Of a DNA stretch of 64,000 bases, positions 2 to 17,664 are shown in pieces. The stretch is from assembly GCA_946407375.1 (NCBI GenBank), contig CAMJNS010000003.1:15170-79169 (forward strand), written 5' to 3'. This stretch comes from an uncultured bacterium. GTDB lineage: Bacteria > Muiribacteriota > Ozemobacteria > Ozemobacterales > Ozemobacteraceae. Position 1 is the first letter of the stretch; the number at the start of each line of letters is the position of its first letter. The notes beneath the pieces are model-generated. The model did no database searches. It was not told the DNA's origin and saw only the letters and a program-made list of their open reading frames with translations. The position numbers were made by a program, and so were the translations under genes.

Positions 2-940
2 GATATTGGCGATACTATAAAAAATGGTGACATCGTTGCTGAATTAGATGATGAAGAATTTATTCTAGCTGTTGAACAAGCTGAAGCAGCCTTAGAAATA
101 GCAAAAGCCAATTATAACGAAAGCGGCGAATTGTTAGAAATTTCCAAAAGAGAATTAGAACGCGTTAAAACAATGCGTAAACAAAAAGTTGCTTCAGAAG
201 TAGAAGTTGAAAATGCCAGTGCAGATTTTAAAACTCGTTCTGCAAAGCATATGGTTAATAAATCTTCTTTAAGACAAGCAGAAGCTTCTTTAGCTCAAGC
301 AAAGCTAAAATTAGCTTATACGAAAGTTGATGCTTCCTGGAGTTACGGAACAAACGATAGATTTGTTGCAGAACGTCTTCTTGATGAAGGTGCGATGATT
401 ACTGCGAACACACCAATTATTTCTGTTATAGATATTACAAATCTTACTGCGGTAATTGATGTTGTTGAAAGAGATTATTTCAAAATAAAACAGGGTATGG
501 AAGTTAAGATTTTCCCGACAGCTCTTCCGGGGAAGGAATATACCGCTAAAGTTACAAGAATTGCACCTATGCTTGATGAAGTTTCGAGACAGGCTAGAAT
601 TGAACTAAATTTAAAGAATCCTAATTTTGAATTAAAGCCAGGTATGTTTATTTCTGCCAATATCATTTATGGAACACATCAAAATACTACAATTGTTCCA
701 ATAGAAGCTTTAGTTATTCGTAAAGAAAAAGAAGGCGTGTTTATTGTTGATGAAACCAAAAAAGTTGCAAAATTTGTTCCTGTAGAATGTGGTTATAGAA
801 ATCCAAAACAAGTTGAAATATGCTATCCGGAAATAAGCGGAAGAGTAATTACACTTGGTCAGCACTTACTTGAAGATGGAATGGCAATCAGAATCCCATC
901 TGATGAAGAAAAAGCCAAAGGGAGCGAAACTAAAAAATGA
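2..940 (+). CDS. RND efflux periplasmic adaptor (membrane-fusion protein, HlyD/AcrA family), 5'-truncated by the window edge
   Basis: Frame 2 is open from base 2 (DIGDTIKNGDIVAELDDEEF...). Coiled-coil hairpin followed by beta-rich domains is typical of MFPs. The stop overlaps the start of the RND pump gene (ATGA). Confidence 0.85.
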   Translation, partial: DIGDTIKNGDIVAELDDEEFILAVEQAEAALEIAKANYNESGELLEISKRELERVKTMRKQKVASEVEVENASADFKTRSAKHMVNKSSLRQAEASLAQAKLKLAYTKVDASWSYGTNDRFVAERLLDEGAMITANTPIISVIDITNLTAVIDVVERDYFKIKQGMEVKIFPTALPGKEYTAKVTRIAPMLDEVSRQARIELNLKNPNFELKPGMFISANIIYGTHQNTTIVPIEALVIRKEKEGVFIVDETKKVAKFVPVECGYRNPKQVEICYPEISGRVITLGQHLLEDGMAIRIPSDEEKAKGSETKK

Positions 941-3900
941 AATTATCTAAACAATCTGTAAGACACCCAATTGGCGTTACAATGATAACGCTGATGGTGG
1001 TCATTTTTGGTTTCGTTTCTTTATATAAACTTCCTGTTGATTTGATGCCTGATATGACTTTCCCTATGATAAGCGTTTCTGCGACTTATGAAAATGCAAG
1101 TCCTACAGAAGTCGAAACTTTGATTACCAGACCAATAGAACAGGCTATAGCTGCTGTTTCTGGTGTTGAAGAAATAGAATCATCTTCTAGCGAAGGAAGA
1201 AGTAATGTAAGAATTTCGTTTGCCTGGGGAACAAATCTTGATGCTGCCACAAACGATGTTAGAGACCGCATTGACCGTATCATTAAAAGGTTGCCAGATG
1301 ATATAGACAGACCACAGATACGTAAATTCGACTCTAATGCAATGCCGATTATGGTGCTTGGTGCCTCAGCAGAGTTAGATCCTGTTAAATTGCTTGATTT
1401 AATAGATAATCAGGTTAAATATCGTATAGAAAAAATAGATGGTGTAGCTTCTATTGATGTTATGGGTGGTAATCAACGTGAAATTCAGGTTAATTTGGAT
1501 ATCAATAAGGCAAAAGCCTTAAAAATAAGCCCAGAACAAATTATTAGCAGAATAAGAGCTGAAAATATCAATCTTCCAGCAGGTATGATTGAATCTGGAA
1601 ACTTTGAAATCAGACTAAGAACTCCTGGAGAATTTCAAACTGTTGAGCAGATTTCAAGACTTGTTGTTGGAATGAACGGTCAGCAGGTTATCAGACTTTG
1701 TGATGTCGCAAATGTTGAAGATCATTGGGAAAAGAAAAGAAGTGTTGTTAGAATCAACGACAATGAAGGTGTTCGAATATCTGTCAGCAAGCAATCTGGT
1801 GCAAATACTGTCAACGTTGCAAAAGCTGTAAAAAAAGAAGTTGCAGCAATTAACGAAGAAATTCCTCAATTAAGATTGACTCCTATTGTCGATAGCTCAA
1901 AATACATTACCCGCTCTATTAATAATGTTAGCCAATCTGCTATCTTGGGCGGTATTCTTGCTATTGTTATTTTACAAATATTTCTTGCTAACTTAGCTAG
2001 TACAACTATTATCGCTATTGCTATTCCCGTTTCTATTATCGCAACTTTCACTTTGATGTATTACTTCGGTTTCACATTAAATATCATGTCATTAGGTGGT
2101 GTTGCTCTTGGTATTGGTATGTTAGTAGACAACTCCATTGTTGTTCTAGAAAACATTTTCAGACATAGGGAAAACGGCGTTCCTATTATAGAAGCTTCAA
2201 TTGAAGGCTCTAACGAAGTTGCAATGTCTATTCTAGCTAGTACTCTTACAACTGTTGTTATATTCCTTCCATTACTTTTTGTAGAAGGCGTAACGGGGGT
2301 AATGTTTAAGCAGCTTGCTTATATAGTTGCTTTCTCGCTATTCTGTTCAATGGCTATTTCTCTGACGATTGTTCCAATGATGACTTCTATTTTCTTAAAA
2401 AACGTTGTTTCTAAAGAAGATAAAGCTACTCATAAAGTTGGATTGTTCAAGAGAATGTCTGATGCAATGGTAGGAATCATCCTAAAAATACAATCCTGGG
2501 CACTGAATAAGGTTCTTACTTATAGAGCATCTACTTTCTTTATATTAGGTTGTTTAATTGCTTTTGCTTGTTCCTTGGTAAGTCTTATGGGAACAGAATT
2601 TATGCCCACTGCTGATGAAGGCGAAGTTAGAGTTAGCATTGAAATGGAAGAAGGCTCTAGATTAAGTTTAGTTGATGAAACTTTCAAAAAAGTTGAAGCA
2701 ATTATAAAGGAAAAAGTGCCTGAAAGAGACATTATGTTTACTAATGTTGGTGGTGGCCGAAACTCTGCAGTAAATAAAGGTGATATACGTATTCCTTTAA
2801 AAGCCTCTAATGAAAGAAAAAGAAGCAGTGCCCAGATTGCTGCCGCACTTAGAAAAGATCTTGGCGGCATTCCTGGAACCGTTATCAGAACAAGAGAAGG
2901 TCAGGGAATGTTTATGATGCGTATGGGTTCTGGCTCTGATAAAGTTCAACTTGAAATACGTGGTTATGATATTGAAACTGCCGATGCATTAGGAGCGCAG
3001 GTTGCAAAGCTTATAAAAGAAGTCCCTGGAATTACAGATGTTAAGCTTTCTCGTGAAAAGGGTGTTCCTGAACGTTCTATCATAATAGATCGTGATAAAG
3101 CAGCAGACCAGAAACTTACTATAAATGCAATTTCTACTTTCCTTGAAACTATGATGTCTGGAAGAAGTGCGGGCAATCTTAGAGATGGTTCTAACGAATA
3201 TAAGATATTAGTAAAAGCTACTGATGCTGAATATATGAAGTTAGATGAAATTCTTAATATGGTTATAACCAACTCTGCCGGCAACCCTGTTATGCTTCGA
3301 AATGTCGCTAGACTTGAAAGCAAGATGGGGCCAACTATTATTGAACGTCATAATCAGGAAAGAATTCTTACTCTTTCTGCCGATGTAGAAGGCCGCTCCC
3401 TTGGTTTTGTTATAAAAGATGTTCAAGAAAAGATTAAAGAAATTCCGTTACCAGAAAACTTTGCTATTGTTATGACTGGTGACTACGAAGATCAACAGGA
3501 AGCTTTCATGGAACTGGCCTTCAGCTTTATTCTTGCTATTTTCTTGGTTTATATGGTTATGGCGATTCAGTATGAATCGTTAAGAGACCCTTTTATCGTT
3601 ATGACAACAGTTCCGTTGTCTGTTATCGGTGTTGTTCCTATTCTTTATTTCACAGGAACTACCTTCAATGTTCAAACATTCATTGGTTGTATCATGCTGG
3701 GCGGTATTGTTGTTAACAACTCAATTCTGCTTGTTGACCATATGAATGAGTTAAGACGCAAGAATCCTGATATGGATATTATTGAAGCCGCTAAAGAGGC
3801 AGCATCTAACCGCTGTCGACCAATTCTGATGACTGCTTCAACAACCATTCTTGGTCTTGTTCCTTTGGCATTAGGTTGGGGAGAAGGCGGTGAAATGCAG

Positions 3901-4029
3901 GCTCCAATGGCAAGAGCGGTTATAAGCGGTCTTACTATCGCAACCTTTATATCACTTCTGATTATTCCGCTTATTTACATTGAATTCGACAAAGCTTTTG
4001 GAAGCGGAAAGGCGAAAACAAATAATTAA
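937..4029 (+). CDS. RND (AcrB/HAE1-type) inner-membrane efflux pump
   Basis: 1030 aa with 12-TM RND architecture and two large periplasmic loops. AcrB-like blocks include SVRHPIGVTMITLMVVIFG, GGVALGIGMLVDNSIVVLENI and DPFIVMTTVPLSVIG. Confidence 0.95.
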   Translation: MKLSKQSVRHPIGVTMITLMVVIFGFVSLYKLPVDLMPDMTFPMISVSATYENASPTEVETLITRPIEQAIAAVSGVEEIESSSSEGRSNVRISFAWGTNLDAATNDVRDRIDRIIKRLPDDIDRPQIRKFDSNAMPIMVLGASAELDPVKLLDLIDNQVKYRIEKIDGVASIDVMGGNQREIQVNLDINKAKALKISPEQIISRIRAENINLPAGMIESGNFEIRLRTPGEFQTVEQISRLVVGMNGQQVIRLCDVANVEDHWEKKRSVVRINDNEGVRISVSKQSGANTVNVAKAVKKEVAAINEEIPQLRLTPIVDSSKYITRSINNVSQSAILGGILAIVILQIFLANLASTTIIAIAIPVSIIATFTLMYYFGFTLNIMSLGGVALGIGMLVDNSIVVLENIFRHRENGVPIIEASIEGSNEVAMSILASTLTTVVIFLPLLFVEGVTGVMFKQLAYIVAFSLFCSMAISLTIVPMMTSIFLKNVVSKEDKATHKVGLFKRMSDAMVGIILKIQSWALNKVLTYRASTFFILGCLIAFACSLVSLMGTEFMPTADEGEVRVSIEMEEGSRLSLVDETFKKVEAIIKEKVPERDIMFTNVGGGRNSAVNKGDIRIPLKASNERKRSSAQIAAALRKDLGGIPGTVIRTREGQGMFMMRMGSGSDKVQLEIRGYDIETADALGAQVAKLIKEVPGITDVKLSREKGVPERSIIIDRDKAADQKLTINAISTFLETMMSGRSAGNLRDGSNEYKILVKATDAEYMKLDEILNMVITNSAGNPVMLRNVARLESKMGPTIIERHNQERILTLSADVEGRSLGFVIKDVQEKIKEIPLPENFAIVMTGDYEDQQEAFMELAFSFILAIFLVYMVMAIQYESLRDPFIVMTTVPLSVIGVVPILYFTGTTFNVQTFIGCIMLGGIVVNNSILLVDHMNELRRKNPDMDIIEAAKEAASNRCRPILMTASTTILGLVPLALGWGEGGEMQAPMARAVISGLTIATFISLLIIPLIYIEFDKAFGSGKAKTNN

Positions 4030-4231: not shown

Positions 4232-4415
4232 CGTGGATTTTTAGTTTTTCGTTTTGTCTATATTTATGAAAGCGAACAAAGAACTTCGAAAGCGGTTCTA
4301 TAAAGCATAAATAATAAATCTAAGAAATTAAATTCAGGAGTTAAAATGAGAAAAGTATTTTCAATGGCAGCACTAATGGTATTCATGAACGCAGCAATGG
4401 CTATGGCAGCTTCAG
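4232..4415 (+). repeat. 184-bp perfect direct repeat, copy 1 (promoter + 5'UTR + RBS + signal-peptide codons)
   Basis: Base-for-base identical to 15664-15847 at a constant offset of 11432. Identity ends at a4416 versus g15848. Confidence 0.95.
4235..4260 (+). promoter_or_regulatory. Candidate two-block promoter GGATT-N16-GTCTA (copy A)
   Basis: The GGATT and GTCTA blocks are conserved in all three paralogous upstream regions, while the 16-nt spacer differs in copy B. An A-run/T-run tract lies immediately upstream. Confidence 0.35.
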
Positions 4416-4537
4416 ATCAAGTAACAAACAATCGACAGGATACCTTAAGAAACGACAAGACTCAGGTAGAATTGATGGGCGACAAACATACTGGTTCTGA
4501 TAATATCGATCCCACAAAAGCAGGTGTTAGAGTATAA
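4346..4537 (+). CDS. Small secreted peptide, paralog A (63 aa, Sec signal peptide, ~40-aa hydrophilic mature part)
   Basis: AGGAG sits 6 nt upstream of the ATG. Signal peptide MRKVFSMAALMVFMNAAMAMA/AS. The C-terminal 23 codons differ from paralog B by 6 synonymous and 2 conservative changes. Own terminators follow. Confidence 0.7.
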   Translation: MRKVFSMAALMVFMNAAMAMAASDQVTNNRQDTLRNDKTQVELMGDKHTGSDNIDPTKAGVRV

Positions 4538-4594: not shown

Positions 4595-4636
4595 GCTTTG
4601 TTGTTATTGTAATCTCTAAACTTAGTTAACAACCGC

Positions 4637-4662
4637 CTCTGAAGCAATTCAGAGATTTTTTT
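4637..4662 (+). terminator. Intrinsic terminator conserved between peptide genes A and B
   Basis: ctctgaa-gcaa-ttcagag followed by a T-run. The block aaccgcctctgaagcaattcagagattttttt recurs at 5884-5914. Confidence 0.7.
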
Positions 4663-4698
4663 GTTTTTAGCAAAATTATCTCATTTCTAATTTTATAT

Positions 4699-5103
4699 CT
4701 ATTTGTTCAAATATTTATTACAAAACTCTCTAGCTGTTATTATTTTTGTCTTTTCAAACTTTTTTAAAACCAATAAATCTTTGTCGCCACTCACTATGTA
4801 AAGAGCTCCAGAATCTTTTGCACAACCAAGAAATTTATTGTCATCCGGGTCTCTACATATTTTAACATTTGATTTAGCCGTGATTATTTTTAAAGACTTT
4901 ATCAATGGAAACAATATATCTTTTCTTAATTTGCCTTGTTTCATATCTATCATTTCATCAACGATTTCTTGATATTCTTCAACAATTTCTGTTGTTGCAA
5001 AAGCATCAAATTCTTTCTGCAAAACAGCTTCTAGTATTTTTCTTGGTTCTCCACCGAAAAACACAGCAGAAATAACAACATTTGTATCTAGAACTATTTT
5101 CAT
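4699..5103 (-). CDS. PIN-domain toxin (VapC-like) of a type II toxin-antitoxin pair
   Basis: 134 aa. N-terminal MKIVLDTNVVISAVFFGG with acidic residues spaced as in PIN domains. 4-bp overlap with the upstream antitoxin gene. Confidence 0.8.
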   Translation of the reverse strand: MKIVLDTNVVISAVFFGGEPRKILEAVLQKEFDAFATTEIVEEYQEIVDEMIDMKQGKLRKDILFPLIKSLKIITAKSNVKICRDPDDNKFLGCAKDSGALYIVSGDKDLLVLKKFEKTKIITAREFCNKYLNK

Positions 5104-5366
5104 TTCCTTTTCTTTTTTCTTACCGATTTGATTATGTTGTTAACATCGCTTTCTTTATAACCTACAGAATCAGCCCATTCTTTTGCTTCGTCTAATGTTT
5201 TAGAAAATTCTTCAGCGGTTGGAAGTCTCAAGACTTTCAGCATTACAACATCACCAGAAGTATAAACAGCCAGTTTGTCGCCAGCATCAATATTTAAATT
5301 TCTTCTAATAGCAATTGGTAAAGAAATTTGCCCCTTAGATGAAAGAGTTAATATTCGAGCGTCCAT
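5100..5366 (-). CDS. AbrB/SpoVT-family antitoxin
   Basis: 88 aa. SSKGQISLPIAIRRNLNIDAGDKLAVY is a looped-hinge-helix (AbrB/MazE) signature. Translationally coupled to the PIN gene. Confidence 0.8.
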   Translation of the reverse strand: MDARILTLSSKGQISLPIAIRRNLNIDAGDKLAVYTSGDVVMLKVLRLPTAEEFSKTLDEAKEWADSVGYKESDVNNIIKSVRKKKRK

Positions 5367-5399: not shown

Positions 5400-5523
5400 T
5401 TAATTATAACATAAAAATCTTAATTTCAAAATTCGTCATTACTAGAACCTTTTAAACAGCTACAATAACTACCAACTACAATAAAAACTTTCAAAAAAAA
5501 TGAAATTTTTTTTGAAAATTCGT

Positions 5524-5549
5524 GGATTTTATAAATTTCATTTTGTCTA
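5524..5549 (+). promoter_or_regulatory. Candidate two-block promoter GGATT-N16-GTCTA (copy B)
   Basis: Same blocks and spacing as 4235-4260 but with a different spacer sequence. The flanking cgtggatttt and ttttgtctatattta.gaaagcgaac are conserved. Confidence 0.35.
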
Positions 5550-5605
5550 TATTTACGAAAGCGAACGAAATAAAAATAAAGTAAATAAACTTAGGAGTAG
5601 AAAAA

Positions 5606-5800
5606 ATGAAAAAAGTATTATCAATGGTAGCATTAATGGTATTTATGAACACAGCAATGGTTATGGCAGCTTCAGATCTAGTATCAAACAAACGACAGGA
5701 TACCACCTTAAGAAATGAAAGAACCCAAGTAGAACTTATGGGCGATAAACATACTGGTTCTGATTATATAGATCCAACAAAAGCAGGCATAAGAGTTTGA
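5606..5800 (+). CDS. Small secreted peptide, paralog B (64 aa)
   Basis: AGGAG RBS. Signal peptide MKKVLSMVALMVFMNTAMVMA/AS. Mature part aligns end to end with paralog A (VELMGDKHTGSD.IDPTKAG.RV). Confidence 0.7.
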   Translation: MKKVLSMVALMVFMNTAMVMAASDLVSNKRQDTTLRNERTQVELMGDKHTGSDYIDPTKAGIRV

Positions 5801-5888
5801 AAAACAGTAAACAGACAGCGAGGTAAAAACAAGCAAATCTAAAGATTGAAAGAAAAATTGCGATTCACAAAATTAAGTAAACAACCGC

Positions 5889-5914
5889 CTCTGAAGCAAT
5901 TCAGAGATTTTTTT
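5889..5914 (+). terminator. Intrinsic terminator, same sequence as 4637-4662
   Basis: ctctgaa-gcaa-ttcagag followed by a T-run. Confidence 0.7.
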
Positions 5915-6118
5915 ATTTTAGCTTCTATTGGCGTAATATTTTTTGTTTATTTGTTATAAATACATTCACTACTTTGGTTATTATTACTTAATTCCAACAT
6001 AAATAATATAAAATCATAGTTAACAACTTAATAAATTATTCAAAGAAAGTTTTTCATGGTCTTAGAAAGACTTATAATAAAGTTAACTATCTTTTATATA
6101 TTTATAAGGAGAATTAAA

Positions 6119-6880
6119 ATGGTAGAGGAACTTCTATTTACAAAAATTGTTGATAAATCGACTCTTTATGAAGGAATAAGCATTCCTGTTGCTTATCAGA
6201 AATTTCTTTTAAGTAAAATGCATTTCTCCTTAGAAAAAGGTAGTCAGAAAAATATTAAAGTGGAAATGTGTGGATATATTTACGATGATGCTGTTATAAA
6301 GAATCAATTTTTTGATGAAGTGAAATTTCCAAATCACTCAGATTTAATACAGATTCGTTATGCTAAGCAAAGTTTACTTGCCCAAAAAATACGTGAAGTT
6401 TTTTCTGTAACAGAATATTTCGTTAATGAGTATTGGAAAAATCAAGCGGATAATAAATCACACCTTGTTATACCTGAAGACAGAAGAGAATACATTGCTT
6501 TATATGTATCAAAAGATAGAATTCGATTTGATTGTATTCCACGTAATTTAACAATAAATACTCAGTCAAAAACTGATTTTGGTGAGGAAGCACCTCAAAG
6601 AAGAGAAACAACGACTTTGGGGTTCAAAAGAAATGCAAACGTTATCGAAAAAGCAAAAGAACGTGCTTCAGGAATTTGTCAATTGTGTGGTAATCTAGCT
6701 CCTTTTTGTGATAAACAGGGATATCCATATTTGGAAGTACATCATGTAATATGGCTTTCACGTGGAGGTGCTGATAAATTAAGCAATGTAGTTGCTTTAT
6801 GTCCAAATTGCCATTCGAAAATGCATATCGTCGATGATGAACAAGATATAGCACTTTTACTAGAAAAAGCTAAGCTATAA
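6119..6880 (+). CDS. HNH endonuclease (McrA-like C-terminus) with an uncharacterised N-terminal domain
   Basis: C-terminal CQLCG...PYLEVHHVIWLSRGGADKLSNVVALCPNCHSKMH is a CxxC/HH/N/CxxCH HNH motif. Start moved to the ATG at 6119, which has AAGGAG 7 nt upstream. The N-terminal FTKIVDKSTLYEGISIPVAYQKF resembles the opening of B3/EcoRII-N pseudobarrels (weak). Confidence 0.8.
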   Translation: MVEELLFTKIVDKSTLYEGISIPVAYQKFLLSKMHFSLEKGSQKNIKVEMCGYIYDDAVIKNQFFDEVKFPNHSDLIQIRYAKQSLLAQKIREVFSVTEYFVNEYWKNQADNKSHLVIPEDRREYIALYVSKDRIRFDCIPRNLTINTQSKTDFGEEAPQRRETTTLGFKRNANVIEKAKERASGICQLCGNLAPFCDKQGYPYLEVHHVIWLSRGGADKLSNVVALCPNCHSKMHIVDDEQDIALLLEKAKL

Positions 6881-6976
6881 TATAATTCATACAGTAATTT
6901 GCTATAGAAACAATTGTTGATTTATAATCGTATTAATTCTAAAGTAATACATAAAATAAATAAGAGCTTCTGTAAT

Positions 6977-8431
6977 ATGAACTATGACGAACTAGTAAAT
7001 CTAAGACAAATGAATGTCGCTTGGATTTTGCTTCGAGCTGATAATGCCCCATTAATAATAAGTTTTCTACACAAAACTTTTATAGAGCCAAATAAAAGAG
7101 ATATAGCCAAAAACATATTAGAAAATTTACTTGAAGATGAGTTGTTCAAATTAAGAGATAGAAATCAGGATCTTTTTCCTAAAAAAGCGTCTGAATACAT
7201 TACAGATTGGCAAAAAAGTGGCTATTTAAGGAATTTTTATGTTGATAACGACGATGAGCCTCATTATGATATTTCCGCAAAGGCAGAAAAAGCCATTCAA
7301 TGGATAGACGATTTAATATCTAAAAAATTCGTAGGTACTGAATCGCGTTTAAGAACTATTTTCAGTTTAGTTGAACAAATAGTTATTGGATCTGATAGAA
7401 ACAAAGAAAATCGTTTAGAAAATTTGGAAAAGCAAAAACAAACTCTTGAAGCTGAAATAGAGAAATTGAAGGCTGGAAATGTATCTATTTTAAGCGATAG
7501 TGAAATTAAAGACAGATTTCAGCAGGTTATTTCTTTGTCTAATATGATGTTAAGCGATTTTAGAGAAGTTGAAGATAATTTTAGAAAACTAGACCAAGCC
7601 ACACGAGAAAAAATAGCAACCAGTGATGGTGCCAAAGGAGAAGTTCTAGAAACTCAATTCAAAGATTTTGATTACATTGAGTCAACCGATGAAGGAAAAA
7701 GCTTTAAAGCCTTTATGCAATTTATTATGTCGCAAGATAAAATAGACGATTTCGATGAAAAATTGGCTAAAATACTTGAAATGAAACAGATTAAAGAGCT
7801 CAAACCAGATAAAAAAATTGCTAAAATATATCGAAATTGGCAGAAAGCTGGAGAATCAACTCAAAAAATGGTTATAAAACTTACTCAAAGACTAAGTAGG
7901 TATGTAAGCCAAAATATATCATCCCAAAACAAAAGTATTGAGCGACTTATAAAAAGAATAGAAAACATGGCAATAAAACTTAAAACAATTGCTAATAACG
8001 ACAAAAATTACATGGATATAGATAAAGCAGGAATTGAATTATCTATGCCAATGGAATTACCTCTTTGGACTTCTTCTGAAAAGCCAAATATTGTTTCAGA
8101 CATTGAAATTGGCTTAGAAAATGACATAGATGATAGTGCCCTATATAATCAAGTCTTTGTAGATAAGCAATCCATAATAGATAATATTCGTAAAGCACTG
8201 AATTTAAATGAACAAACAACTTTAGGACAGGTTATAAATAATAATCCGTTAAATAAAGGTTTAATGGAGTTAATAAGCTATTTTAGCGTTGCAAGTGAAA
8301 TGCAAAACAACCGGCAAATTAATATAATTTGTGATGATTCAAGTAAAGAAGAAATAAAATGGTTAGATGAAAGTTTGCAAGCAATTCGAGTTGCCAAAAT
8401 TCCAAAAATAACAATAAGCTACGAGAAATAA
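6977..8431 (+). CDS. jetA: Wadjet JetA (kleisin-like subunit, DUF3375-type)
   Basis: N-terminal MNVAWILLRADNAPLIISFLHKTF matches the conserved JetA opening as I recall it. ~484 aa with a central coiled coil. First of four contiguous genes with JetABCD sizes and order. Confidence 0.8.
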   Translation: MNYDELVNLRQMNVAWILLRADNAPLIISFLHKTFIEPNKRDIAKNILENLLEDELFKLRDRNQDLFPKKASEYITDWQKSGYLRNFYVDNDDEPHYDISAKAEKAIQWIDDLISKKFVGTESRLRTIFSLVEQIVIGSDRNKENRLENLEKQKQTLEAEIEKLKAGNVSILSDSEIKDRFQQVISLSNMMLSDFREVEDNFRKLDQATREKIATSDGAKGEVLETQFKDFDYIESTDEGKSFKAFMQFIMSQDKIDDFDEKLAKILEMKQIKELKPDKKIAKIYRNWQKAGESTQKMVIKLTQRLSRYVSQNISSQNKSIERLIKRIENMAIKLKTIANNDKNYMDIDKAGIELSMPMELPLWTSSEKPNIVSDIEIGLENDIDDSALYNQVFVDKQSIIDNIRKALNLNEQTTLGQVINNNPLNKGLMELISYFSVASEMQNNRQINIICDDSSKEEIKWLDESLQAIRVAKIPKITISYEK

Positions 8432-8432
8432 A

Positions 8433-9056
8433 ATGACTATATCTGAAGAAGAAAAAAATAATTATAACTTTTCCAAAATACTTATAAACCTTATGAAAGG
8501 TATTGTTTATAGAGAAGATGATGTAAATATTTGGAATTATTTAGAAGATAATGAATCTCAAGTTTCTGAACACTTTAAAATAATTGGTTTACGGCTAATT
8601 ATTGATAAATCAAGAGGTTACGCTTATTTAAAGCAAATCTTATTTAACCTGGAAGAGGAACAACTGCCCAGATTAATAAGGAAACAACCTCTAAGTAGAC
8701 AAGTATCAATATTAATTGTTGTTTTACGGCAAATTGTTATAGAAAAAGAAAACTCAGGTAGTGATGATAGAATCATTGTTTCTTTTGATGATATAGCAGA
8801 TAAATATAGAGCGTTTTATCCAAATAGCAATGATGATGAAAAAAAATTCTATAAAGATTTAAAATCATATTTAAAGAAGGTTATAGATTTAGATTTTATT
8901 AGAGAATTAAAAAGTGAAGAAGATAATTATGAAATAAAACCAATAATAGTATCATTTGTAGATATGGATTGGCTTAACAATTTCAAGGACAGGTTAACAG
9001 ATGAATTGAGAGAAAACAATATAGATATTGCTGATGAAAATGAGGATTTAGAATGA
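8433..9056 (+). CDS. jetB: Wadjet JetB (KITE-like subunit, DUF4194-type)
   Basis: 207 aa acidic protein. Starts 1 nt after the jetA stop and overlaps jetC by 4 bp. Size and position fit JetB. Confidence 0.7.
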   Translation: MTISEEEKNNYNFSKILINLMKGIVYREDDVNIWNYLEDNESQVSEHFKIIGLRLIIDKSRGYAYLKQILFNLEEEQLPRLIRKQPLSRQVSILIVVLRQIVIEKENSGSDDRIIVSFDDIADKYRAFYPNSNDDEKKFYKDLKSYLKKVIDLDFIRELKSEEDNYEIKPIIVSFVDMDWLNNFKDRLTDELRENNIDIADENEDLE

Positions 9057-12000
9057 ATTACGAACAAAGCTTTTTAGAATTTGCAACAGATAATTCAACA
9101 ACAGGTTTTAGACTAGATCGTTTAGAAATACTTAATTGGGGAACTTTCGACCAAAAAGTCTGGTCTCTTTATCCCTCAAGCAGAAATATTCTAGTTACTG
9201 GTGAAATTGGTTCAGGAAAATCAACAATAGCAGATGCAATTAGTACTTTGCTTGTTCCTCCACAGTGGTTGTCTTTTAATAAAGCCGCAGGAGCAGAAAG
9301 AAGAGAGAGAGATTTAAAGTCTTATGTTTTAGGTTTCTATAAAACAGAATCTGCTGATAGTGGTCTAATAGGTAAACCAGTAGCTTTACGTGATATAAAT
9401 TCATATTCTGTAATATTGGGAGTTTTTAAAAATTCAGGATACAATCAAGTTTATACGCTAGCACAAGTTTTTGTAGCCAAACCAGAAGGTGGGCAACCTG
9501 AAAGATTTTATTTTATTTCAAGTTCAGATTTATCAATTAAAAATGATTTTTCAGGCTTTGGAAATGAAATCAAAGCATTAAAATCAAGATTAAGAAAAAT
9601 ACCTGATTCAAAAATTTATGATACTTTTCTACAATACGCTAACGATTTTAAAAGATATTTTGGAATAGATAATAATCAGGCTTTGGGTTTATTTAATCAA
9701 ACAATTTCAATGAAGTCTGTTGGAAATCTTACGTCTTTTATTCGCGAAAATATGCTTCAAGAATATGAAACGAATGAAGAAGTAAATGCAATGATTCAGA
9801 ATTACGAACAGCTTTCAAAAGCTCATGACGAAATTCTTAAAGCCAATGATCAGATAGAAATCTTAAAGAAAATATCTAATATTGGTCAAGAATGTAGCAA
9901 ATTTGAAAAAGAAATAAATGATACTGAAAATAAATTAGATGCTTTACATTCTTATATGCTAGTAAACAAAGTTTCTTTTGTAGAAAAAGAAATTAATAGA
10001 TTAAATAATGAAAAAGAAAATGTTGATCAAGAATTAAATAAATTAAAAGAAGATGAAACAAACTATAATAGTCAAGTAACAGAAATAACTACTAATATAG
10101 TTTTAAATGGTGGCAATGAGATTACAGAAATAGAAAATAAAATAAAAACTCAAGAAAAAGAACTAAATAAACGCAAAAGAAATGAGGAAGAATATAAATC
10201 TATTTTAGCTATGACAGATTTAATATTCCCCATTGATATAGCAAGTTTTGAAAATAACAAACGTCAAATTGAAACAATAAGAAATTATACAAAATCAGAA
10301 TATTCTATAAAAAATGAAGAAAAATTTAGCAAAAAGCTTAATATTCAGGTATTAAAAAACAATAAAAAACAAATAGATGATGAAATAAATTCATTAAAAG
10401 GGCGTATAAACAATATTCCACTAGAACAAATAAAGATAAGAAGTTTAATTTGTACTAAAACAGGTTTGTTAGATGATGAATTACCATTTGTTGGAGAGCT
10501 TATTCAGGTAAAAGAAAGCGAAAAAGCATGGCAAGGAGCTATTGAGCGAGTCCTTCATGGTTTTGGGTTATCTCTATTAGTATCTGATTCTGTATATTCT
10601 AAAGTATCCAAAGCTGTTGATGAAACAAATCTTAAAGGTAAAATTGTTTATTTCAGAGTAAAAAACTTGGAAAACAGAATAAGTAACTATAATATTTCAC
10701 CAAATTCTATGGTTAGGAAAATAAAGGTAAAGCCAGATTGTTGGGCTTATGATTGGTTGCAAAATGAATTAGAAGAAAGATTTAATTATATATGTTGTGA
10801 AAACTTAGAATTATTCCAAAAAGAAAAATATGCAGTTACAATAAATGGTCAGGTTAAACATGGTGGAGTAAAGCATGAAAAAGACGATAGAAAAGCAATT
10901 AACGATATTTCTACTTATATTTTAGGCTGGAATAATAAAGAAAAAATATTAAATTTAAAAGCTGAATCTGATAAAATTCAAGAAGAAATAAATTCTTTAT
11001 TATCTGAAATAAAATTACTAGATAATAGATTAAAATTATTAGAACTTAAAGACAATAAATTGCATGAACATATAAAATATAGTAGCTATGAAAATATAGA
11101 CTGGAAAAGCATTGATTTAGAAATAAAAGAGTTACAAGAAAGATTAGAAGAGCTACATAAATCTTCTGACAAACTTAATAAGCTAAGAGAACAAAAAACA
11201 AAGCTAGAAGAAAAAATAAATGAGATAAAAGTTATAATTAATACAAAAACTAAGAAACAAGGCGGAATTGAAAATAAAATAAGCGAATTAAATAAAATAT
11301 TAAACAAATCTAGTGATGAAATAAATTCTAATAATGACTTCCCCAAGACAGAATATTTAGAAAGTTGTTTAAGTGAAATAATAAATGATATTAAAGAAAT
11401 ATCATCATTAGAAGAGTTTGATAGACAAGAAAGAATTTTAAACAAAAAATTTAATGATTTGAAATCAAATCTTCAAAAGGATTTTAGTGATAAAAAGAAT
11501 ATATTAGTCAAAGAAATGAGTGTATTTAAAAATAAATATGTCTTAGAATCAGCAGAACTGGGGCAAGAATATCAATATCTTTCTGATTACAATAAATTCC
11601 TTTTAAGGCTACAAAATGATGATTTGCCTAGATTTGAAACAAGATTTAAAGATTTACTGCATCAACAAACAATTCAAGGAATTGCTTCCTTTAATTCAAA
11701 GTTAAACAGAGATTCTGAAGAAATAAAAGATAGAATTAGAGCTATAAATGAGTCGTTAAAAGAAATTCAGTATAATGAAGGTCGTTATATAAGAATTGAA
11801 GTTATTTCTAATAATGACAAAGAAATAAATGATTATAAAAGCGATTTACGAAATTGCACAAACAATTCATTAAATTTTTCTGATGACGAATATTATAATG
11901 AACAAAGATTTGAAGCCGTTAAAGTAATTATAGACAGATTAAAAGGTCGAGAAGGCTTTATTGATGCAGATAAAAAATGGCGTTTAAAAGTTACTGACGT

Positions 12001-12433
12001 TAGAAATTGGTTTAATTTTGCTGCTTCTGAAAGATATAAGTCTGATGACAGTCAGGCAGAATATTACAATGATTCTACAGGAAAATCCGGAGGACAAAAA
12101 GAAAAGCTTGCATATACTATATTGGCGGCGGGATTAGCTTACCAATTTGGTTTAAGAAAAATAGGCGAAACCAAATCAAGAAGTTTTAGGTTTGTTGTAA
12201 TTGATGAAGCTTTTGGTCGTGGAAGTGAAGAATCAGCCCGCTTTGGATTAGAACTTTTCAAAAAACTGGATTTACAGATAATGGTTATAACACCTTTGCA
12301 AAAAATACACGTCATAGAGCCATATATAGACAATGTGGGTTTTGTGGCTATCAGCGACAACAGGTCTAGAATTCGTAATTTAAGTATAGAGCAATATAAA
12401 GAAGAATATAATGAAAGAACTACAAAACAGTAA
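9053..12433 (+). CDS. jetC: Wadjet JetC (SMC-like ATPase)
   Basis: 1126 aa. N-terminal Walker A GEIGSGKST, a very long K/E/N-rich coiled-coil middle, then C-terminal signature SGGQKEKLAYTILAAGL and Walker B FRFVVIDEAFGRGS. Confidence 0.9.
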   Translation: MNYEQSFLEFATDNSTTGFRLDRLEILNWGTFDQKVWSLYPSSRNILVTGEIGSGKSTIADAISTLLVPPQWLSFNKAAGAERRERDLKSYVLGFYKTESADSGLIGKPVALRDINSYSVILGVFKNSGYNQVYTLAQVFVAKPEGGQPERFYFISSSDLSIKNDFSGFGNEIKALKSRLRKIPDSKIYDTFLQYANDFKRYFGIDNNQALGLFNQTISMKSVGNLTSFIRENMLQEYETNEEVNAMIQNYEQLSKAHDEILKANDQIEILKKISNIGQECSKFEKEINDTENKLDALHSYMLVNKVSFVEKEINRLNNEKENVDQELNKLKEDETNYNSQVTEITTNIVLNGGNEITEIENKIKTQEKELNKRKRNEEEYKSILAMTDLIFPIDIASFENNKRQIETIRNYTKSEYSIKNEEKFSKKLNIQVLKNNKKQIDDEINSLKGRINNIPLEQIKIRSLICTKTGLLDDELPFVGELIQVKESEKAWQGAIERVLHGFGLSLLVSDSVYSKVSKAVDETNLKGKIVYFRVKNLENRISNYNISPNSMVRKIKVKPDCWAYDWLQNELEERFNYICCENLELFQKEKYAVTINGQVKHGGVKHEKDDRKAINDISTYILGWNNKEKILNLKAESDKIQEEINSLLSEIKLLDNRLKLLELKDNKLHEHIKYSSYENIDWKSIDLEIKELQERLEELHKSSDKLNKLREQKTKLEEKINEIKVIINTKTKKQGGIENKISELNKILNKSSDEINSNNDFPKTEYLESCLSEIINDIKEISSLEEFDRQERILNKKFNDLKSNLQKDFSDKKNILVKEMSVFKNKYVLESAELGQEYQYLSDYNKFLLRLQNDDLPRFETRFKDLLHQQTIQGIASFNSKLNRDSEEIKDRIRAINESLKEIQYNEGRYIRIEVISNNDKEINDYKSDLRNCTNNSLNFSDDEYYNEQRFEAVKVIIDRLKGREGFIDADKKWRLKVTDVRNWFNFAASERYKSDDSQAEYYNDSTGKSGGQKEKLAYTILAAGLAYQFGLRKIGETKSRSFRFVVIDEAFGRGSEESARFGLELFKKLDLQIMVITPLQKIHVIEPYIDNVGFVAISDNRSRIRNLSIEQYKEEYNERTTKQ

Positions 12434-13616
12434 AGACATAAAAGAAGAACTTAATAAAGTTTGGAATAAAGGCTTGATTTTGTGTCAAAAATTAAGCATT
12501 AACAAAGATCAAAGAGTCATAGAATTTCCTTATAAAATAAGACTTAGACAGCCTGCATCAAAAGATAGAGCTGATATTTCAAATTATAATACAATTAAAG
12601 ATTGGTGCAAGCACTGGAAAGATCAATATGATTTATTTGGCAAGCAAAAACTTAATATAAGCATTGAATATATGCCGATTAATGACAGAATTTTAGGGAA
12701 ACAGGAACTTCCTGCGTATATTGTGGTAAATGATATAAATAGCTTCATACATTATATAAAAAAAGAAAAAGAGATTAAACAATTTGAAGAAATAGTAACG
12801 GTTATTTTTGATGAATGTTCTAATCTCCTTAATTTAATGAATGATAAGCCTTTCGATTTTTTGAAATACGATTCAAAAGAATGGCACAAAATTATACAAG
12901 TATCTGTTTGGATAGCTAACAATCCAAATCCAAATATTTATTTAAGAGAATTGGAAATTCCTAATGTTGATACAAAATTTATAGAAAAGCATGATGGAAT
13001 TTTGAAAAAAGTAATAAATTTTCTTCTTAACAAAGATGAAAAAGATTTTGCTACGAATAATTTTGAAGTACGCTATGGATTCAAAAGAAAGCCTGTAACA
13101 GTTCATTTTCGTATTCTTGACAAAGATTTAGCTATAAATGGCTTAACGGATTTAGAAATCCCTATTGAGGATTTTGCTAGATTAAATATTTCTGTCAAAA
13201 AAGCATTTATAATAGAAAACAAGATTACAGGGTTGTCTTTCCCAAATGTAAAATCAGCAATAGTTATTTTTGGTCTTGGTTTTGGGCTAGATAGACTTAA
13301 AAAATGCGGTTGGCTGAATAATTTGGAATTATATTATTGGGGTGACTTAGATACAAACGGTTTTGTTATGCTAGACCAGTTCCGTTCTTATTTTCCAAAA
13401 GCCAAATCAATGCTAATGACTTCAGAAATTGTTAAAGAGCACAAAGATATGTGGGTTAAAGAGGAAAAACAATCTATTAGAGAGTTAACTCATTTAACAG
13501 CTGATGAAGCAAATACCTACAAAGAATTAAAAGAAAACAAACACACCAACAATTTACGCTTAGAACAAGAACGAATTAATTTTTCTTTTGTAAAAGAATT
13601 TTTAAATAGTCTATAA
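12411..13616 (+). CDS. jetD: Wadjet JetD (Toprim/topo-VI-like nuclease subunit)
   Basis: 401 aa and overlaps jetC by 23 bp. C-terminal YYWGDLDTNGFVMLDQFR is a Toprim DxD motif, as in JetD/MksG. Confidence 0.8.
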   Translation: MKELQNSKDIKEELNKVWNKGLILCQKLSINKDQRVIEFPYKIRLRQPASKDRADISNYNTIKDWCKHWKDQYDLFGKQKLNISIEYMPINDRILGKQELPAYIVVNDINSFIHYIKKEKEIKQFEEIVTVIFDECSNLLNLMNDKPFDFLKYDSKEWHKIIQVSVWIANNPNPNIYLRELEIPNVDTKFIEKHDGILKKVINFLLNKDEKDFATNNFEVRYGFKRKPVTVHFRILDKDLAINGLTDLEIPIEDFARLNISVKKAFIIENKITGLSFPNVKSAIVIFGLGFGLDRLKKCGWLNNLELYYWGDLDTNGFVMLDQFRSYFPKAKSMLMTSEIVKEHKDMWVKEEKQSIRELTHLTADEANTYKELKENKHTNNLRLEQERINFSFVKEFLNSL

Positions 13617-13709
13617 ATAATACTATTTTTTACGTTTGGTTTTAAAGGTGGATTAGTTATGGTTGATGAAATTTCTAATCGATCTTATTGTCTTTTCAAT
13701 TCTCAATTC

Positions 13710-15413
13710 TCATTTTACAACAGCTACTCGGCAGCGCTTTTTATAGCAGGCTATGACAAACTTTCTGACTACATAAGTATCTTCGTCATCGAAGATTTTG
13801 ATATATCGATTGTTTTCGATTTGCTTTATTCCCTCGTCAAGAGCTTCCTGGAATTTTTTGGGGCTTTCTGCGTATTTGAGTTCTATTATTATGCCAATAG
13901 TATAGCTTGGAGTGTAAAGAATAAGGTCAGGATAGCCGTAACCAGATTCTTTGTTTGATTCAACAATAAGTTTCTTGTTGTTTGGGGTTAATAAGCCTAG
14001 CAGAAGACCATGGTAGAAGTTTTCCTTGTAATCTTTCTTCGCCATACTGTCTCTGACACTGATAGACTGCTCCAGAATTTCAGTAAAAGCTTTTTCAACT
14101 TTTTCTGCATTTCCATCATATAAACCATCATAGAGTTCATTCATAAGAGGCTGTTTTTCTATGAAAGAATCTTTCATCCATTCCATAATCTGATCTTCAT
14201 AAAGAACTCTTATTTCTCTATTGGGAATTCTTAGACTGAAAGTGTCGTTGCTTTCTCGGTCGGTAAAGGTAAGATAGCCCGTAGAAAAAAGAACGCTCCA
14301 GATATTGTCTGTCTTTTTATACAAATCTCTGTAGGTAATTTCCTGCTTAATCTTTTTAGTGATTGTCTCGCCAGCAACCAGGCTTTCAATCTCTCTTTTG
14401 GTTGAGTTGTCAGCTTCTTTTAAGAATTTGATTATTATGTCGTTTCCGCTGGTATTTGCCCAGTAAGGTTTTGGAAAAACATTTATATCTGTATCTAGTT
14501 GGCTACAGAAAAGTATTACATCCCATGGGCAATAGACTTCTTTTTTCCCGAATCTATAACCATCATACCATTTTTTTGCATCGTCGAATCTAGAAGAAAC
14601 TTTGTAGTAATCGAACATTTCTCTAACTTCGTCTTCTGTGAAACCAAAAAATTCGGAAGCTTCATTATCTGCAATAGAAAATACGTTGAAATTATTTACT
14701 CCAGTAAAAATGCTTTCTTTGGCTATTCTCAGGCAACCAGTAAGCACAGCCATTTCTAAATATGGATTTGTTTTGAAAGTGTTATTGAACATTCCCCTTA
14801 TAAGAGAAATCATTTCGTTGAAATAACCATTGTTTTCCGCTTTATCTAAGGGAACATCATATTCGTCGATAATGAAAACTGTCTTTTTGCCGTAATGTTT
14901 GTATATTAGTTCAGAAAGAATTCTGAGGCTTTTGGTAATTAGATCATTTTGTTTTTCTTTATCGTATTTTTCTATATTTTTTATACTTTTAAAAGTATCT
15001 TTTTCTTCATCGTTTAATTTTTCACTATTAGATAAATCATTAAAAGAGCGAACAGCATCTAGAACCAGTCCCATTAGATGGAGTCTTGCGGATTCAAAAC
15101 TGTTTCCTTCAACGCCTTTTAAAGTCATAAAAATAGTAGGAAACTGGTTCTGCCATTCTTCACAAAGTGTTTTGTTCTCAGATATTTTCAAGCCATTGAA
15201 TAATTCTGGATTGCCACCCATTCTTAAAAATTCGTAAAGCATGGTCATGTTAAGAGTTTTGCCGAAACGTCTTGGGCGGGTGAATAGATTTACATCACCC
15301 TTTTTCTCTTTCAGATATTCTATTAACCCTGTTTTATCAATATAATAAGAATGGTCGTTTATTAGTTTTTCAAAAATATCTGTTCCTATTGGTAATGGCT
15401 TTTTATTGGACAT
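13710..15413 (-). CDS. AAA-ATPase-like protein with C-terminal PD-(D/E)XK nuclease domain (AAA-ATPase_like + PDDEXK_9 architecture)
   Basis: N-terminal PIGTDIFEKLI...YIDKTGLI...FTRPRRFGKTLNMTML is the family signature. The C-terminus has YPDLIL...IIIELKY, a D...ExK motif. Confidence 0.8.
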   Translation of the reverse strand: MSNKKPLPIGTDIFEKLINDHSYYIDKTGLIEYLKEKKGDVNLFTRPRRFGKTLNMTMLYEFLRMGGNPELFNGLKISENKTLCEEWQNQFPTIFMTLKGVEGNSFESARLHLMGLVLDAVRSFNDLSNSEKLNDEEKDTFKSIKNIEKYDKEKQNDLITKSLRILSELIYKHYGKKTVFIIDEYDVPLDKAENNGYFNEMISLIRGMFNNTFKTNPYLEMAVLTGCLRIAKESIFTGVNNFNVFSIADNEASEFFGFTEDEVREMFDYYKVSSRFDDAKKWYDGYRFGKKEVYCPWDVILFCSQLDTDINVFPKPYWANTSGNDIIIKFLKEADNSTKREIESLVAGETITKKIKQEITYRDLYKKTDNIWSVLFSTGYLTFTDRESNDTFSLRIPNREIRVLYEDQIMEWMKDSFIEKQPLMNELYDGLYDGNAEKVEKAFTEILEQSISVRDSMAKKDYKENFYHGLLLGLLTPNNKKLIVESNKESGYGYPDLILYTPSYTIGIIIELKYAESPKKFQEALDEGIKQIENNRYIKIFDDEDTYVVRKFVIACYKKRCRVAVVK

Positions 15414-15663
15414 ATCTATGTTCCTGCTTTTGTTTTATAGATTTATTCTAATAGGAAATCTTGTTTTTAGCAAGATGTTGAGAATTGAGAGATATGAGAC
15501 CATAACTTGAGATATAAGATTAAAGTAATTGTTGTTGTCAATTTTTTGAAGCTTACGCTTCTCTTGTTTTTGTTGTAGTAATTTATCGATTTATTTCAAA
15601 CTTTTGATTGCTTGAGAACTAAACAATCCTCTTATCTCTCTTCTCTAAAAAAAAATTTTTTAG

Positions 15664-15847
15664 CGTGGATTTTTAGTTTTTCGTTTTGTCTATATTTATG
15701 AAAGCGAACAAAGAACTTCGAAAGCGGTTCTATAAAGCATAAATAATAAATCTAAGAAATTAAATTCAGGAGTTAAAATGAGAAAAGTATTTTCAATGGC
15801 AGCACTAATGGTATTCATGAACGCAGCAATGGCTATGGCAGCTTCAG
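15664..15847 (+). repeat. 184-bp perfect direct repeat, copy 2
   Basis: Identical to 4232-4415. Confidence 0.95.
15667..15692 (+). promoter_or_regulatory. Candidate two-block promoter GGATT-N16-GTCTA (copy C)
   Basis: Lies inside the perfect repeat, at the same position relative to the ATG as copy A. Confidence 0.35.
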
Positions 15848-17664
15848 GTCTTGTCTCCTACAACAGACAGGATGTCACCTTTAAGTATGGCAAGACTCAG
15901 GAAAACGTGACCTGTATTCAGGATGCCAAGGATGAAAAGCAGTGGTACTACGTATCCAACAAGCCAAGACTTGCCGAAAGCAAGAATGGCGATCCTATGA
16001 TGATGCTGGTTTCCTACCAGAAGAATTCAAAAGCAGGTGTTAAGAATGACGGCGGTATCCTCCAGTGTGGTATCAACCTCTCTCTTCCTGCAGATGCAAT
16101 TCCAACTCTGAGAAAGGAACTTGCAAAGACAGTCGGTGTTTCTGACAGCAAAATCAAGCTTGCTCCACTTGATATGAAGAACGCCAAGCTTATGGTCTAT
16201 GCTCCCGGCGGAGATCTCATGGGTGACAAGCTTACAGCCCCAGAAATCGGTCCAAGCTTCGCCAACGAATGTCTTCCAATACAGATGAATCTCAACAATC
16301 TCGGTGTTCCTGTTATAGAAGCTTTGATCAAAGGTACAGGCGGATTACAGGTAGTATATGTATTTGACTATGACGCACTAACTCCTGAATATTCTGTAAA
16401 AGTCACAGCTAACTACGACAAGGCTTTTGAACACTTCAGCCACGATTCAAAAACCTCTGTATCCGCCAAGAAATGGTTTTTTGCTGGTGCCAGTTCAGAT
16501 GTAAGCGTTACCACTGTAAGAGAAAAACTCCAGCAGTCAGGAGCACTGAAGATTGAATCCATCGGCGGTGAAAAGCTTACTGATGAACAGATCGACAAAC
16601 TCACCCAGCCTGTTATTGAAAAACTGATGAACGGTATCTATGAAATCGAAACTCCTGAAAAGATAGACCCCGCAAAATCAGGCGATCCTAAGGAAGTTAA
16701 GACAGCCTGGATCAATGTAAGCACCAATATGGCATTCAAGAGTGTAAAGACTCGTAAGACCGGTGAATTTGTATACGACTTCAGAAAACGCTACATCGAA
16801 ACCAGAAAGACAACTGTCGGCGGAATTATGAGTCTTGCCGGTTACACTCAGGCTCAGAGAGATGCTGCTGTTCAGACTGTTGATCCAACCTACTGGAAGA
16901 ATGCTTTCTACAGTCTGCCAACTATCAGTAAGTCCTTGAACGGTATTGATGAAATGACTGTAACTGTAAACTTCCTCTACAAGGGCAAACAGGCAGAAGG
17001 AACCGAACAGCAGCTTGCCAAATGGACCAAGAAGGAAGGCTGGGTTGACGCTAAGAAGGAAGAATGCGTAGGTCTTGAATTCCCACTCAAATACTTCTAT
17101 GACAAGTATGCAAAGAACAACAGCAGATTCGCAGACGACATCTCCTATCAGCAGAATTTCGAAGTAACCTATATGGAAGGCAACAATACCAAGGTTAAGA
17201 AGTTCTCTACTACAGTTCCTGCTTTCACAGGCGAAATCCCGATAAGCACTCCGATGGTCGGCGTAACCTACATCGAACTCAATGCTGATGAAGAAGACAT
17301 CACCTGGGACAAGGCAGATTACGAAGGCGGAGAATTCGACGGTTTGAAATCCAATCTTACCAAGATCGGTGTTAAGATGGAATCCAAGAACCCCGGCAAC
17401 AAAGGCACTGCAACTTTGACAAGCAAGAACACCTCAGCAGGTTTCTGGTTCGACAATCTCTTCGACAAGAAGACCGGCACCTACTCAGTTCCACAGGTTT
17501 CTGCAACATATACATTCTATAATACCAAATTAGCAAAAGCTATGGGTACTAAAGACAATAAAACTATAGTTGTAGAAAGTGACGATGCATTGAGCGAAAG
17601 CACAAGCATAACCTTTATGAATGACAGTTATATGCCAGTTGAAAAACCAGCATCCTACAAGTAA
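15778..17664 (+). CDS. Secreted 628-aa protein of unknown function, predicted highly expressed
   Basis: Signal peptide identical to peptide A. Mature N-terminus SGLVSYNRQDVT is homologous to peptides A and B. Codon usage is strongly C-ending (tac, aac, aag, atc, ttc, ctc) like tuf and unlike its neighbours. A strong terminator follows. Confidence 0.85.
   Translation: MRKVFSMAALMVFMNAAMAMAASGLVSYNRQDVTFKYGKTQENVTCIQDAKDEKQWYYVSNKPRLAESKNGDPMMMLVSYQKNSKAGVKNDGGILQCGINLSLPADAIPTLRKELAKTVGVSDSKIKLAPLDMKNAKLMVYAPGGDLMGDKLTAPEIGPSFANECLPIQMNLNNLGVPVIEALIKGTGGLQVVYVFDYDALTPEYSVKVTANYDKAFEHFSHDSKTSVSAKKWFFAGASSDVSVTTVREKLQQSGALKIESIGGEKLTDEQIDKLTQPVIEKLMNGIYEIETPEKIDPAKSGDPKEVKTAWINVSTNMAFKSVKTRKTGEFVYDFRKRYIETRKTTVGGIMSLAGYTQAQRDAAVQTVDPTYWKNAFYSLPTISKSLNGIDEMTVTVNFLYKGKQAEGTEQQLAKWTKKEGWVDAKKEECVGLEFPLKYFYDKYAKNNSRFADDISYQQNFEVTYMEGNNTKVKKFSTTVPAFTGEIPISTPMVGVTYIELNADEEDITWDKADYEGGEFDGLKSNLTKIGVKMESKNPGNKGTATLTSKNTSAGFWFDNLFDKKTGTYSVPQVSATYTFYNTKLAKAMGTKDNKTIVVESDDALSESTSITFMNDSYMPVEKPASYK

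Follow-up and report, generated by a model that had tools for sequence, protein, structure and literature searches.

The gene at positions 6119-6880 of the window (the whole stretch of 64,000 nucleotides analysed, from an uncultured member of the Ozemobacteraceae) probably encodes a self-contained two-domain restriction endonuclease of the type IV-like kind, which would be independent of the Wadjet operon located immediately downstream and its neighbour by virtue of a shared block of defence genes. In the proposed mechanism, an N-terminal pseudobarrel similar to B3 and EcoRII-N domains would select the DNA target, a flexible linker of about 27 residues would tether the HNH domain to this barrel, and the C-terminal McrA-type HNH domain, probably dimerising as in EcoKMcrA, would cut the DNA. 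The target would most likely be foreign DNA that is modified within a particular sequence context, since no cognate methyltransferase gene is adjacent and the relatives of the protein are encoded among type IV genes or alone. The enzyme would work without Wadjet.

Gene start and upstream region

The open reading frame (6119-6880, + strand) is intact and translates without internal stops into a protein of 253 amino acids. A ribosome-binding site, AAGGAG, is located at 6106-6111, 7 nt upstream of the ATG at 6119. The start is placed at this ATG because the full-length homologs, including those from other phyla, all begin with the shared N-terminus M-x-E-E-L-L-F. An in-frame ATG at 6056, which would add 21 residues, is ruled out by the position of the ribosome-binding site and by the N-termini of the homologs.

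The 186 bp preceding the gene (5933-6118, + strand) comprise its conserved 5' region and the left edge of the defence block. In an alignment of the four known copies of the block this region is near-invariant and more conserved than the coding sequence, while the DNA further left differs. A promoter scan revealed a promoter-like element, TTTTCA-16-TATAAT, at 6051-6078. A 5-bp inverted repeat, GTCTT-aga-AAGAC, is found between its -35-like and -10-like hexamers and may be an operator.

The HNH nuclease domain and the linker

The C-terminal part of the protein (residues ~171-253; 6629-6880 including the stop codon, + strand), delimited using Pfam, PADLOC, the structure 6ghc and the homolog alignment, is a McrA-type HNH nuclease domain. 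Residues 187-236 match Pfam HNH (PF01844) with an E-value of 3e-11 and 43.7 bits, compared with a curated cut-off of 21.4, and the motif comprises C187-x2-C190, LEVHH at 205-209, N223, C228-x2-C231-H232 and H236. Both CxxC zinc motifs and the catalytic HH pair are present, as are N223 and H236, and 12 full-length homologs show no variation at C187, C190, H208, H209, N223, C228, C231, H232 and H236. With a score above the curated cut-off and its catalytic and zinc residues in place, the domain belongs to the HNH (beta-beta-alpha-Me) superfamily. Among solved structures, the HNH domain of E. coli McrA is its closest relative (6ghc; E 2.4e-19, residues 169-244), and the gene product shares the McrA-type HNH domain of the EcoKMcrA family. 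An earlier note on this DNA, made from the letters alone, had described the motif as complete and McrA-like, which agrees with these results. The PADLOC model for type IV methyl-directed restriction enzymes, mREase_IV PDLC03656 (E 3e-21), covers residues 160-244 only.

The preceding residues, ~144-170 (6548-6628, + strand), form a linker, as judged from pLDDT and conservation among homologs. It is predicted to be disordered, with pLDDT below 50 at residues 145-151 and 155-170 of the full-length AlphaFold2 model, and is partly conserved in the homolog alignment (GEEAPQRRE).

Predicted fold of the N-terminal domain

Residues 1-143 (6119-6547, + strand) are predicted by AlphaFold2 and Foldseek to form a B3/EcoRII-N-like pseudobarrel. 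The earlier note had singled out an N-terminal part of about 170 residues opening with F-T-K-I-V-x-K-S-T-x(5)-I-S-I-P, a pattern that it likened to B3, EcoRII-N and BfiI-C domains. The opening was read correctly (F7-T-K-I-V-D-K-S-T...I-S-I-P23), but the folded domain is shorter, about 143 residues, and the likeness holds at the level of the AlphaFold2 and Foldseek fold but not in sequence profiles (Pfam, hhalign).

Structure prediction, which that note had proposed for the N-terminal part, resulted in a confident AlphaFold2 model (pLDDT 91.7 and pTM 0.84 with an alignment of 133 sequences), whose meaningful PDB matches are plant B3 and EcoRII-N domains only. Its secondary structure elements follow the order b1-a-b2-a1-b3-b4-b5-a2-b6-b7, equal to that of the B3 fold, which consists of seven strands and two helices (PMC12065111). 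The best six Foldseek matches in the PDB are all B3 or EcoRII-N structures, with probabilities of 0.60-0.97 (at least 0.90 for five of the six), TM-scores of 0.35-0.60 when normalised to these domain-sized targets, and weak Foldseek E-values of 0.04-0.2. They include the VAL1 B3 structures 5yzy and 6j9a (probability 0.97, TM up to 0.60 on the target), the LEC2 B3 domain 6j9c, and the EcoRII N-terminal domain (3hqf and 1na6), while all remaining PDB matches have probabilities of 0.10 or less. An independent full-length model, built from 12 sequences only, retrieved the same B3/EcoRII structures after McrA, and a search of a viral structure library with the model of the domain returned only noise.

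Profile scans of Pfam and NCBIfam and an HMM search of PDB sequences gave no match to residues 1-~143. Neither Pfam B3 (PF02362) nor EcoRII-N was detected in 44 members of the domain family at E-values up to 10, and hhalign against four plant B3 sequences yielded a probability of 0.35%, aligning b1-b2 alone, the very stretch picked out in the earlier note. The domain has the predicted fold of a B3/EcoRII-N pseudobarrel with no sequence-profile match to that group; it is B3-like at the level of the predicted fold and not a proven homolog. Conserved residues are found in the b1-b2 region (K9, D12 and S14) and in the b4/b5 region (N62, Q78, R80 and Y81), and by their position in the model they would match the N-arm and the C-arm of B3 domains. 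The predicted fold, together with the fusion partners described below, suggests that the domain binds double-stranded DNA.

Two other relationships were considered and rejected. A PUA/SRA-type pseudobarrel is ruled out, no PUA, SRA or EVE structure being present among the Foldseek matches. [quoted passage not shown] Residues 1-160 have no significant alignment to 6ghc, and PADLOC PDLC03656 skips the N-terminus.

Family and fusion partners of the N-terminal domain

A phmmer search covering all 1.84 billion representatives detected the N-terminal domain in 250 clusters (50% identity) at E <1e-3, and in 92 at E <1e-10; the domain is therefore real and widespread. It is found alone or N-terminal to a McrA-type HNH domain, to a different, HNH_2-like HNH domain (in proteins of ~280 aa), to an SRA-like domain (protein P0130), to SRA plus HNH (P0129), to a McrB-like AAA_5 ATPase (P0210 and P0261) or to AIPR (P0183 and P0245), and in P0255, which has an MTaX1 domain, it takes the C-terminal position. 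The full architecture of N-terminal domain plus HNH occurs in about a dozen proteins only. The list of partners is that expected for a target-recognition module of restriction-type systems. The domain also has a paralogue of 214 aa with 29% identity (G005:C67, L019 1354-1998, - strand), which contains no nuclease and ends in a Sigma70_r1_1-like C-terminal tail (Pfam E 5e-6).

Genomic context of homologs and the probable target

The homolog P0002, with 93% identity to the window protein, is encoded in the same HNH-jetABCD-AAA/PDDEXK_9 arrangement. Five distant lineages (53-73% identity) have no jet genes at their loci. The gene for P0005 (73%) comes after HEPN-SNF2, SACS-type ATPase and DUF4379 genes and is followed by a gene for an HNH_4 protein; that for P0007 (61%) lies beside a restriction-modification cluster with two methyltransferases, with a Dcm-type methyltransferase gene 2.6 kb off; and a homolog from Clostridiales DTU053 (61%) has only glycosidase, sugar kinase and transporter genes around it. 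P0010 (57%) is encoded directly after a SauUSI-like PLD-helicase-DUF3427 gene and a NUDIX gene, and P0012 (53%) has the SauUSI-like and NUDIX genes together with McrBC, two Mrr genes and two other HNH genes.

Two gene arrangements recur among these loci. Directly after the B3-HNH gene, two distant lineages encode a homologous HNH_4 protein of ~365 aa (L002 10502-11413 and L008 10864-11961); the HNH_4 proteins encoded beside P0005 and P0012 share 55% identity, and the gene pair may represent a recurrent two-gene arrangement of restriction nucleases. In two lineages (the P0010 and P0012 loci, L004-L009) a SauUSI-like PLD-DEAD-helicase-DUF3427 gene and then a small NUDIX gene are located 5' of the B3-HNH gene, the NUDIX gene being replaced in L004 by an ORF of 63 aa.

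Modification dependence of the type IV-like kind is probable for the HNH enzyme. Methyltransferase genes are absent from the block, and from the DNA next to it, in all four copies; the DTU053 homolog stands by itself in a metabolic neighbourhood; genes of type IV systems (SauUSI-like, McrBC and Mrr) recur near the homologs; the N-terminal domain occurs fused to SRA domains, which are readers of modified cytosine; and the HNH domain belongs to the McrA / mREase_IV type. All of these features argue against a sequence-specific nuclease acting on unmodified DNA in a type II or IIE-like manner, in which the B3-like domain would read a defined unmodified site, and self-DNA would be spared by a distant methyltransferase, by avoidance of the site, or by autoinhibition relieved, as in EcoRII, only in the presence of several sites. 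Such an enzyme is rather unlikely here, yet it is a serious rival because every B3-type domain characterised so far in restriction enzymes reads unmodified sites (PMC7680126, PMC12065111, PMC12191111). P0210, in which the N-terminal domain is joined to AAA_5, matches the PADLOC 'REase_II' models. A nuclease of this kind would also accord with the restriction-modification cluster beside P0007 and with the three N6/N4 methyltransferase loci in the window's genome, which could protect self-DNA.

Host methylation is equivocal as a clue to the target of the putative modification-dependent enzyme. No C5-cytosine or Dam-type methyltransferase was found in the window's assembly (86% complete), while two congeners, G005 and G003, carry the HNH gene together with C5-cytosine methyltransferases. 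Context-free 5mC-dependent activity appears unlikely because of these C5 methyltransferases and the Dcm-type methyltransferase near P0007. A more tentative proposal, somewhat doubtful at present, is that the N-terminal domain is the first B3-fold reader of modified DNA.

The Wadjet operon and the shared defence block

The type I Wadjet operon downstream (6977-13616, + strand) is complete according to Pfam and PADLOC. It consists of jetA (6977-8431; DUF3375, with PADLOC JetA1 aligned from residue 1), jetB (8433-9056; DUF4194/MksE, PADLOC JetB1), jetC (9053-12433; SbcC_Walker_B/AAA_29, PADLOC JetC1) and jetD (12411-13616; JetD_C/DUF3322, PADLOC JetD1), all on the + strand. Canonical Wadjet is a four-gene system with JetD as the nuclease, and to our knowledge an HNH partner is not part of the described system.

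With the jetA start at 6977, as given by PADLOC JetA1, the HNH gene lies on the same strand and ends 96 bp 5' of jetA, exactly as had been noted earlier. The spacer (6881-6976, + strand), analysed by promoter scan and block-copy alignment, contains no terminator-like hairpin. The hexamers of a possible promoter proposed in the earlier note, TTGATT (6917-6922)-17-TAAAGT (6940-6945), are indeed present, but they are overlapped by a better sigma-70-like match, TTGCTA-18-TATAAT at 6899-6928 (10/12), which is conserved in 4/4 copies of the block. Promoter-like matches in this AT-rich region between the HNH gene and jetA are no commoner than in shuffles (5 found vs 10.2 expected), so a promoter in the spacer is at most a possibility.

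The HNH gene, jetABCD and an AAA-ATPase_like plus PDDEXK_9 gene (13710-15413, - strand; Pfam), the last of the block, are contained in a single block of ~9.7 kb (5933-15624). According to blastn, it is ~94% identical in four copies, namely the window, the congeneric Riflebacteria MAGs G003 and G005, and the metagenome contig L001. In the window the block separates an RND pump (937-4029) from the corresponding outer-membrane factor (18024-19715), and in G003 and L001 it is inserted between Peptidase_C11 genes. The HNH proteins (89-94% amino-acid identity) and the Jet proteins (90-98%) have diverged to a similar extent across the copies, and faster evolution of the HNH protein was not seen. It is probable that the block as a whole has been relocated from one chromosomal site to another within one Riflebacteria genus.

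The surroundings of the block are repetitive. A segment of ~210 nt containing a promoter and a signal peptide is present in three copies (4232-4441, 5492-5701 and 15664-15873; the first and third are 96% identical without gaps), and a terminator hairpin is duplicated (4613-4667 and 5865-5919). Together these repeats bracket a toxin-antitoxin cassette and the defence block, and recombination between them may cause rearrangement. Just upstream of the block, the opposite (-) strand encodes a PIN_3 toxin paired with a MazE/AbrB-type antitoxin (4699-5366).

Within whole genomes, the HNH gene and Wadjet occur together only in the window genome and in G003 and G005. The HNH gene is absent from the Wadjet loci of three other genomes of the same family, and no other nuclease gene was seen 5' of jetA in family-level Wadjet loci. 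HNH-jetABCD co-occurrence is not conserved across lineages, the adjacency amounting to one ~94%-identical block in one genus. Because there is one shared block with differing flanks, in which the HNH and Jet proteins have diverged alike, the adjacency is, on comparison of these loci, one inherited or transferred arrangement and not a recurrent association. The HNH gene is most likely a mere neighbour of Wadjet in a shared defence block.

The earlier note had left the choice between an independent restriction gene and a lineage-specific accessory to Wadjet, had proposed a survey of homologs, and had stated that homologs scattered without Wadjet would indicate the former. The homologs are scattered in restriction-type islands or stand alone, with Wadjet only in the window's genus, which favours the independent restriction gene. 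The accessory alternative is disfavoured, but same-strand co-inheritance in four copies leaves it some room. In its fullest form it holds that the B3-HNH protein was recruited as a Wadjet partner in this Riflebacteria lineage, co-transcribed with jetABCD and adding a mark- or site-dependent nuclease activity, a proposal that we consider very unlikely; if true, it would mean an extra nuclease activity on an SMC-based plasmid-restriction machine. A lineage-specific accessory role, in which the HNH protein would be co-expressed with JetABCD and help to restrict plasmids or phages, for example as a second nuclease or a sensor of DNA marks, is just as improbable. The shared strand, the 96-bp gap without a terminator, and the co-inheritance of HNH and jetABCD with similar divergence in all four copies would fit such a role. 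It is countered by the five independent lineages in which full-length homologs occur without jet genes, by the Wadjet loci of related genomes that lack the HNH gene, by the conserved promoter-like element of the spacer itself, and by the canonical Wadjet being already complete with its own nuclease. We infer that the HNH enzyme is independent of Wadjet.

Homing endonucleases occur among HNH nucleases, and the HNH gene is the first in a block found at different chromosomal sites, but a homing-type or mobility-associated endonuclease promoting the spread of the 9.7-kb block is highly improbable, given that homologs elsewhere are embedded in restriction islands and not at the edges of comparable blocks, that the HNH domain represents the McrA subtype and has a zinc-finger CxxC pair, that there is no integrase, intron or intein context, and that the paralogous repeats bracketing the block could explain its movement by recombination.

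Relation to known restriction systems

Solitary restriction nucleases combining a reader with an HNH domain are already known, as are B3 modules in restriction enzymes. The type IV 5mC/5hmC-dependent HNH endonuclease EcoKMcrA resembles the window protein in its clearly homologous HNH domain and in being encoded by a solitary gene without a methyltransferase. However, its NEco domain, which has a MotA-like fold (PMC6182155), is unrelated to the predicted B3-like barrel, and the specificity is expected to differ because the N-terminal domains are unrelated.

B3 recognition modules are established in EcoRII and BfiI (PMC12065111, PMC12191111), LlaJI.R1 (PMC7680126) and Menshen NsnA (PMC12065111). 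The window N-terminal domain resembles EcoRII-N, BfiI-C and plant B3 domains, its best and only significant structural matches, in being predicted to form an open barrel of seven strands and two helices arranged in the same order, but it has no detectable sequence-profile similarity to them. The nuclease partner also differs, being HNH in the window protein, PD-(D/E)XK in EcoRII and PLD in BfiI, and unlike these two enzymes the window protein is encoded without an adjacent methyltransferase. LlaJI.R1 of Helicobacter pylori is a McrB-family GTPase in which an N-terminal B3 domain provides a restriction motor with target recognition (PMC7680126), and the window domain family is likewise fused to McrB-like AAA_5 (P0210, P0261). 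LlaJI, however, is a multi-gene restriction-modification system with methyltransferases and an unmodified site, whereas the window protein is a single-chain HNH enzyme.

The SRA-HNH, EVE-HNH and SBD-SRA-HNH type IV enzymes (TagI, VcaM4I and ScoMcrA) have the same single-chain organisation of reader plus HNH, and the relative P0129 combines the N-terminal domain with both SRA and HNH. The reader of the window protein differs in being predicted as B3-like and not of the PUA superfamily. The HNH domains of TagI and ScoMcrA are weak sequence matches to that of the window protein. In Menshen, B3-fold modules of NsnA are swapped as DNA sensors of defence proteins, and sigma-70 region 1.1-like sensors are also listed (PMC12065111); the G005 paralogue of the window domain has a tail of this type. 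The effector context of NsnA differs from that of the window protein.

Implications

The literature searched contains no account of a McrA-type HNH domain combined with a B3-like module, nor of this unannotated N-terminal domain family. For the biology of Wadjet the present case is a caution, as adjacency within a defence block is no evidence of partnership. The N-terminal domain has no Pfam family despite its occurrence in hundreds of protein clusters and with many restriction-type partners, and the characterisation of one member would give the family a function. If the domain reads modified DNA, more than 250 clusters would together make up a new family with type IV specificity. Such work could also provide epigenetic mapping with a nuclease whose specificity for sequence or modification is new.
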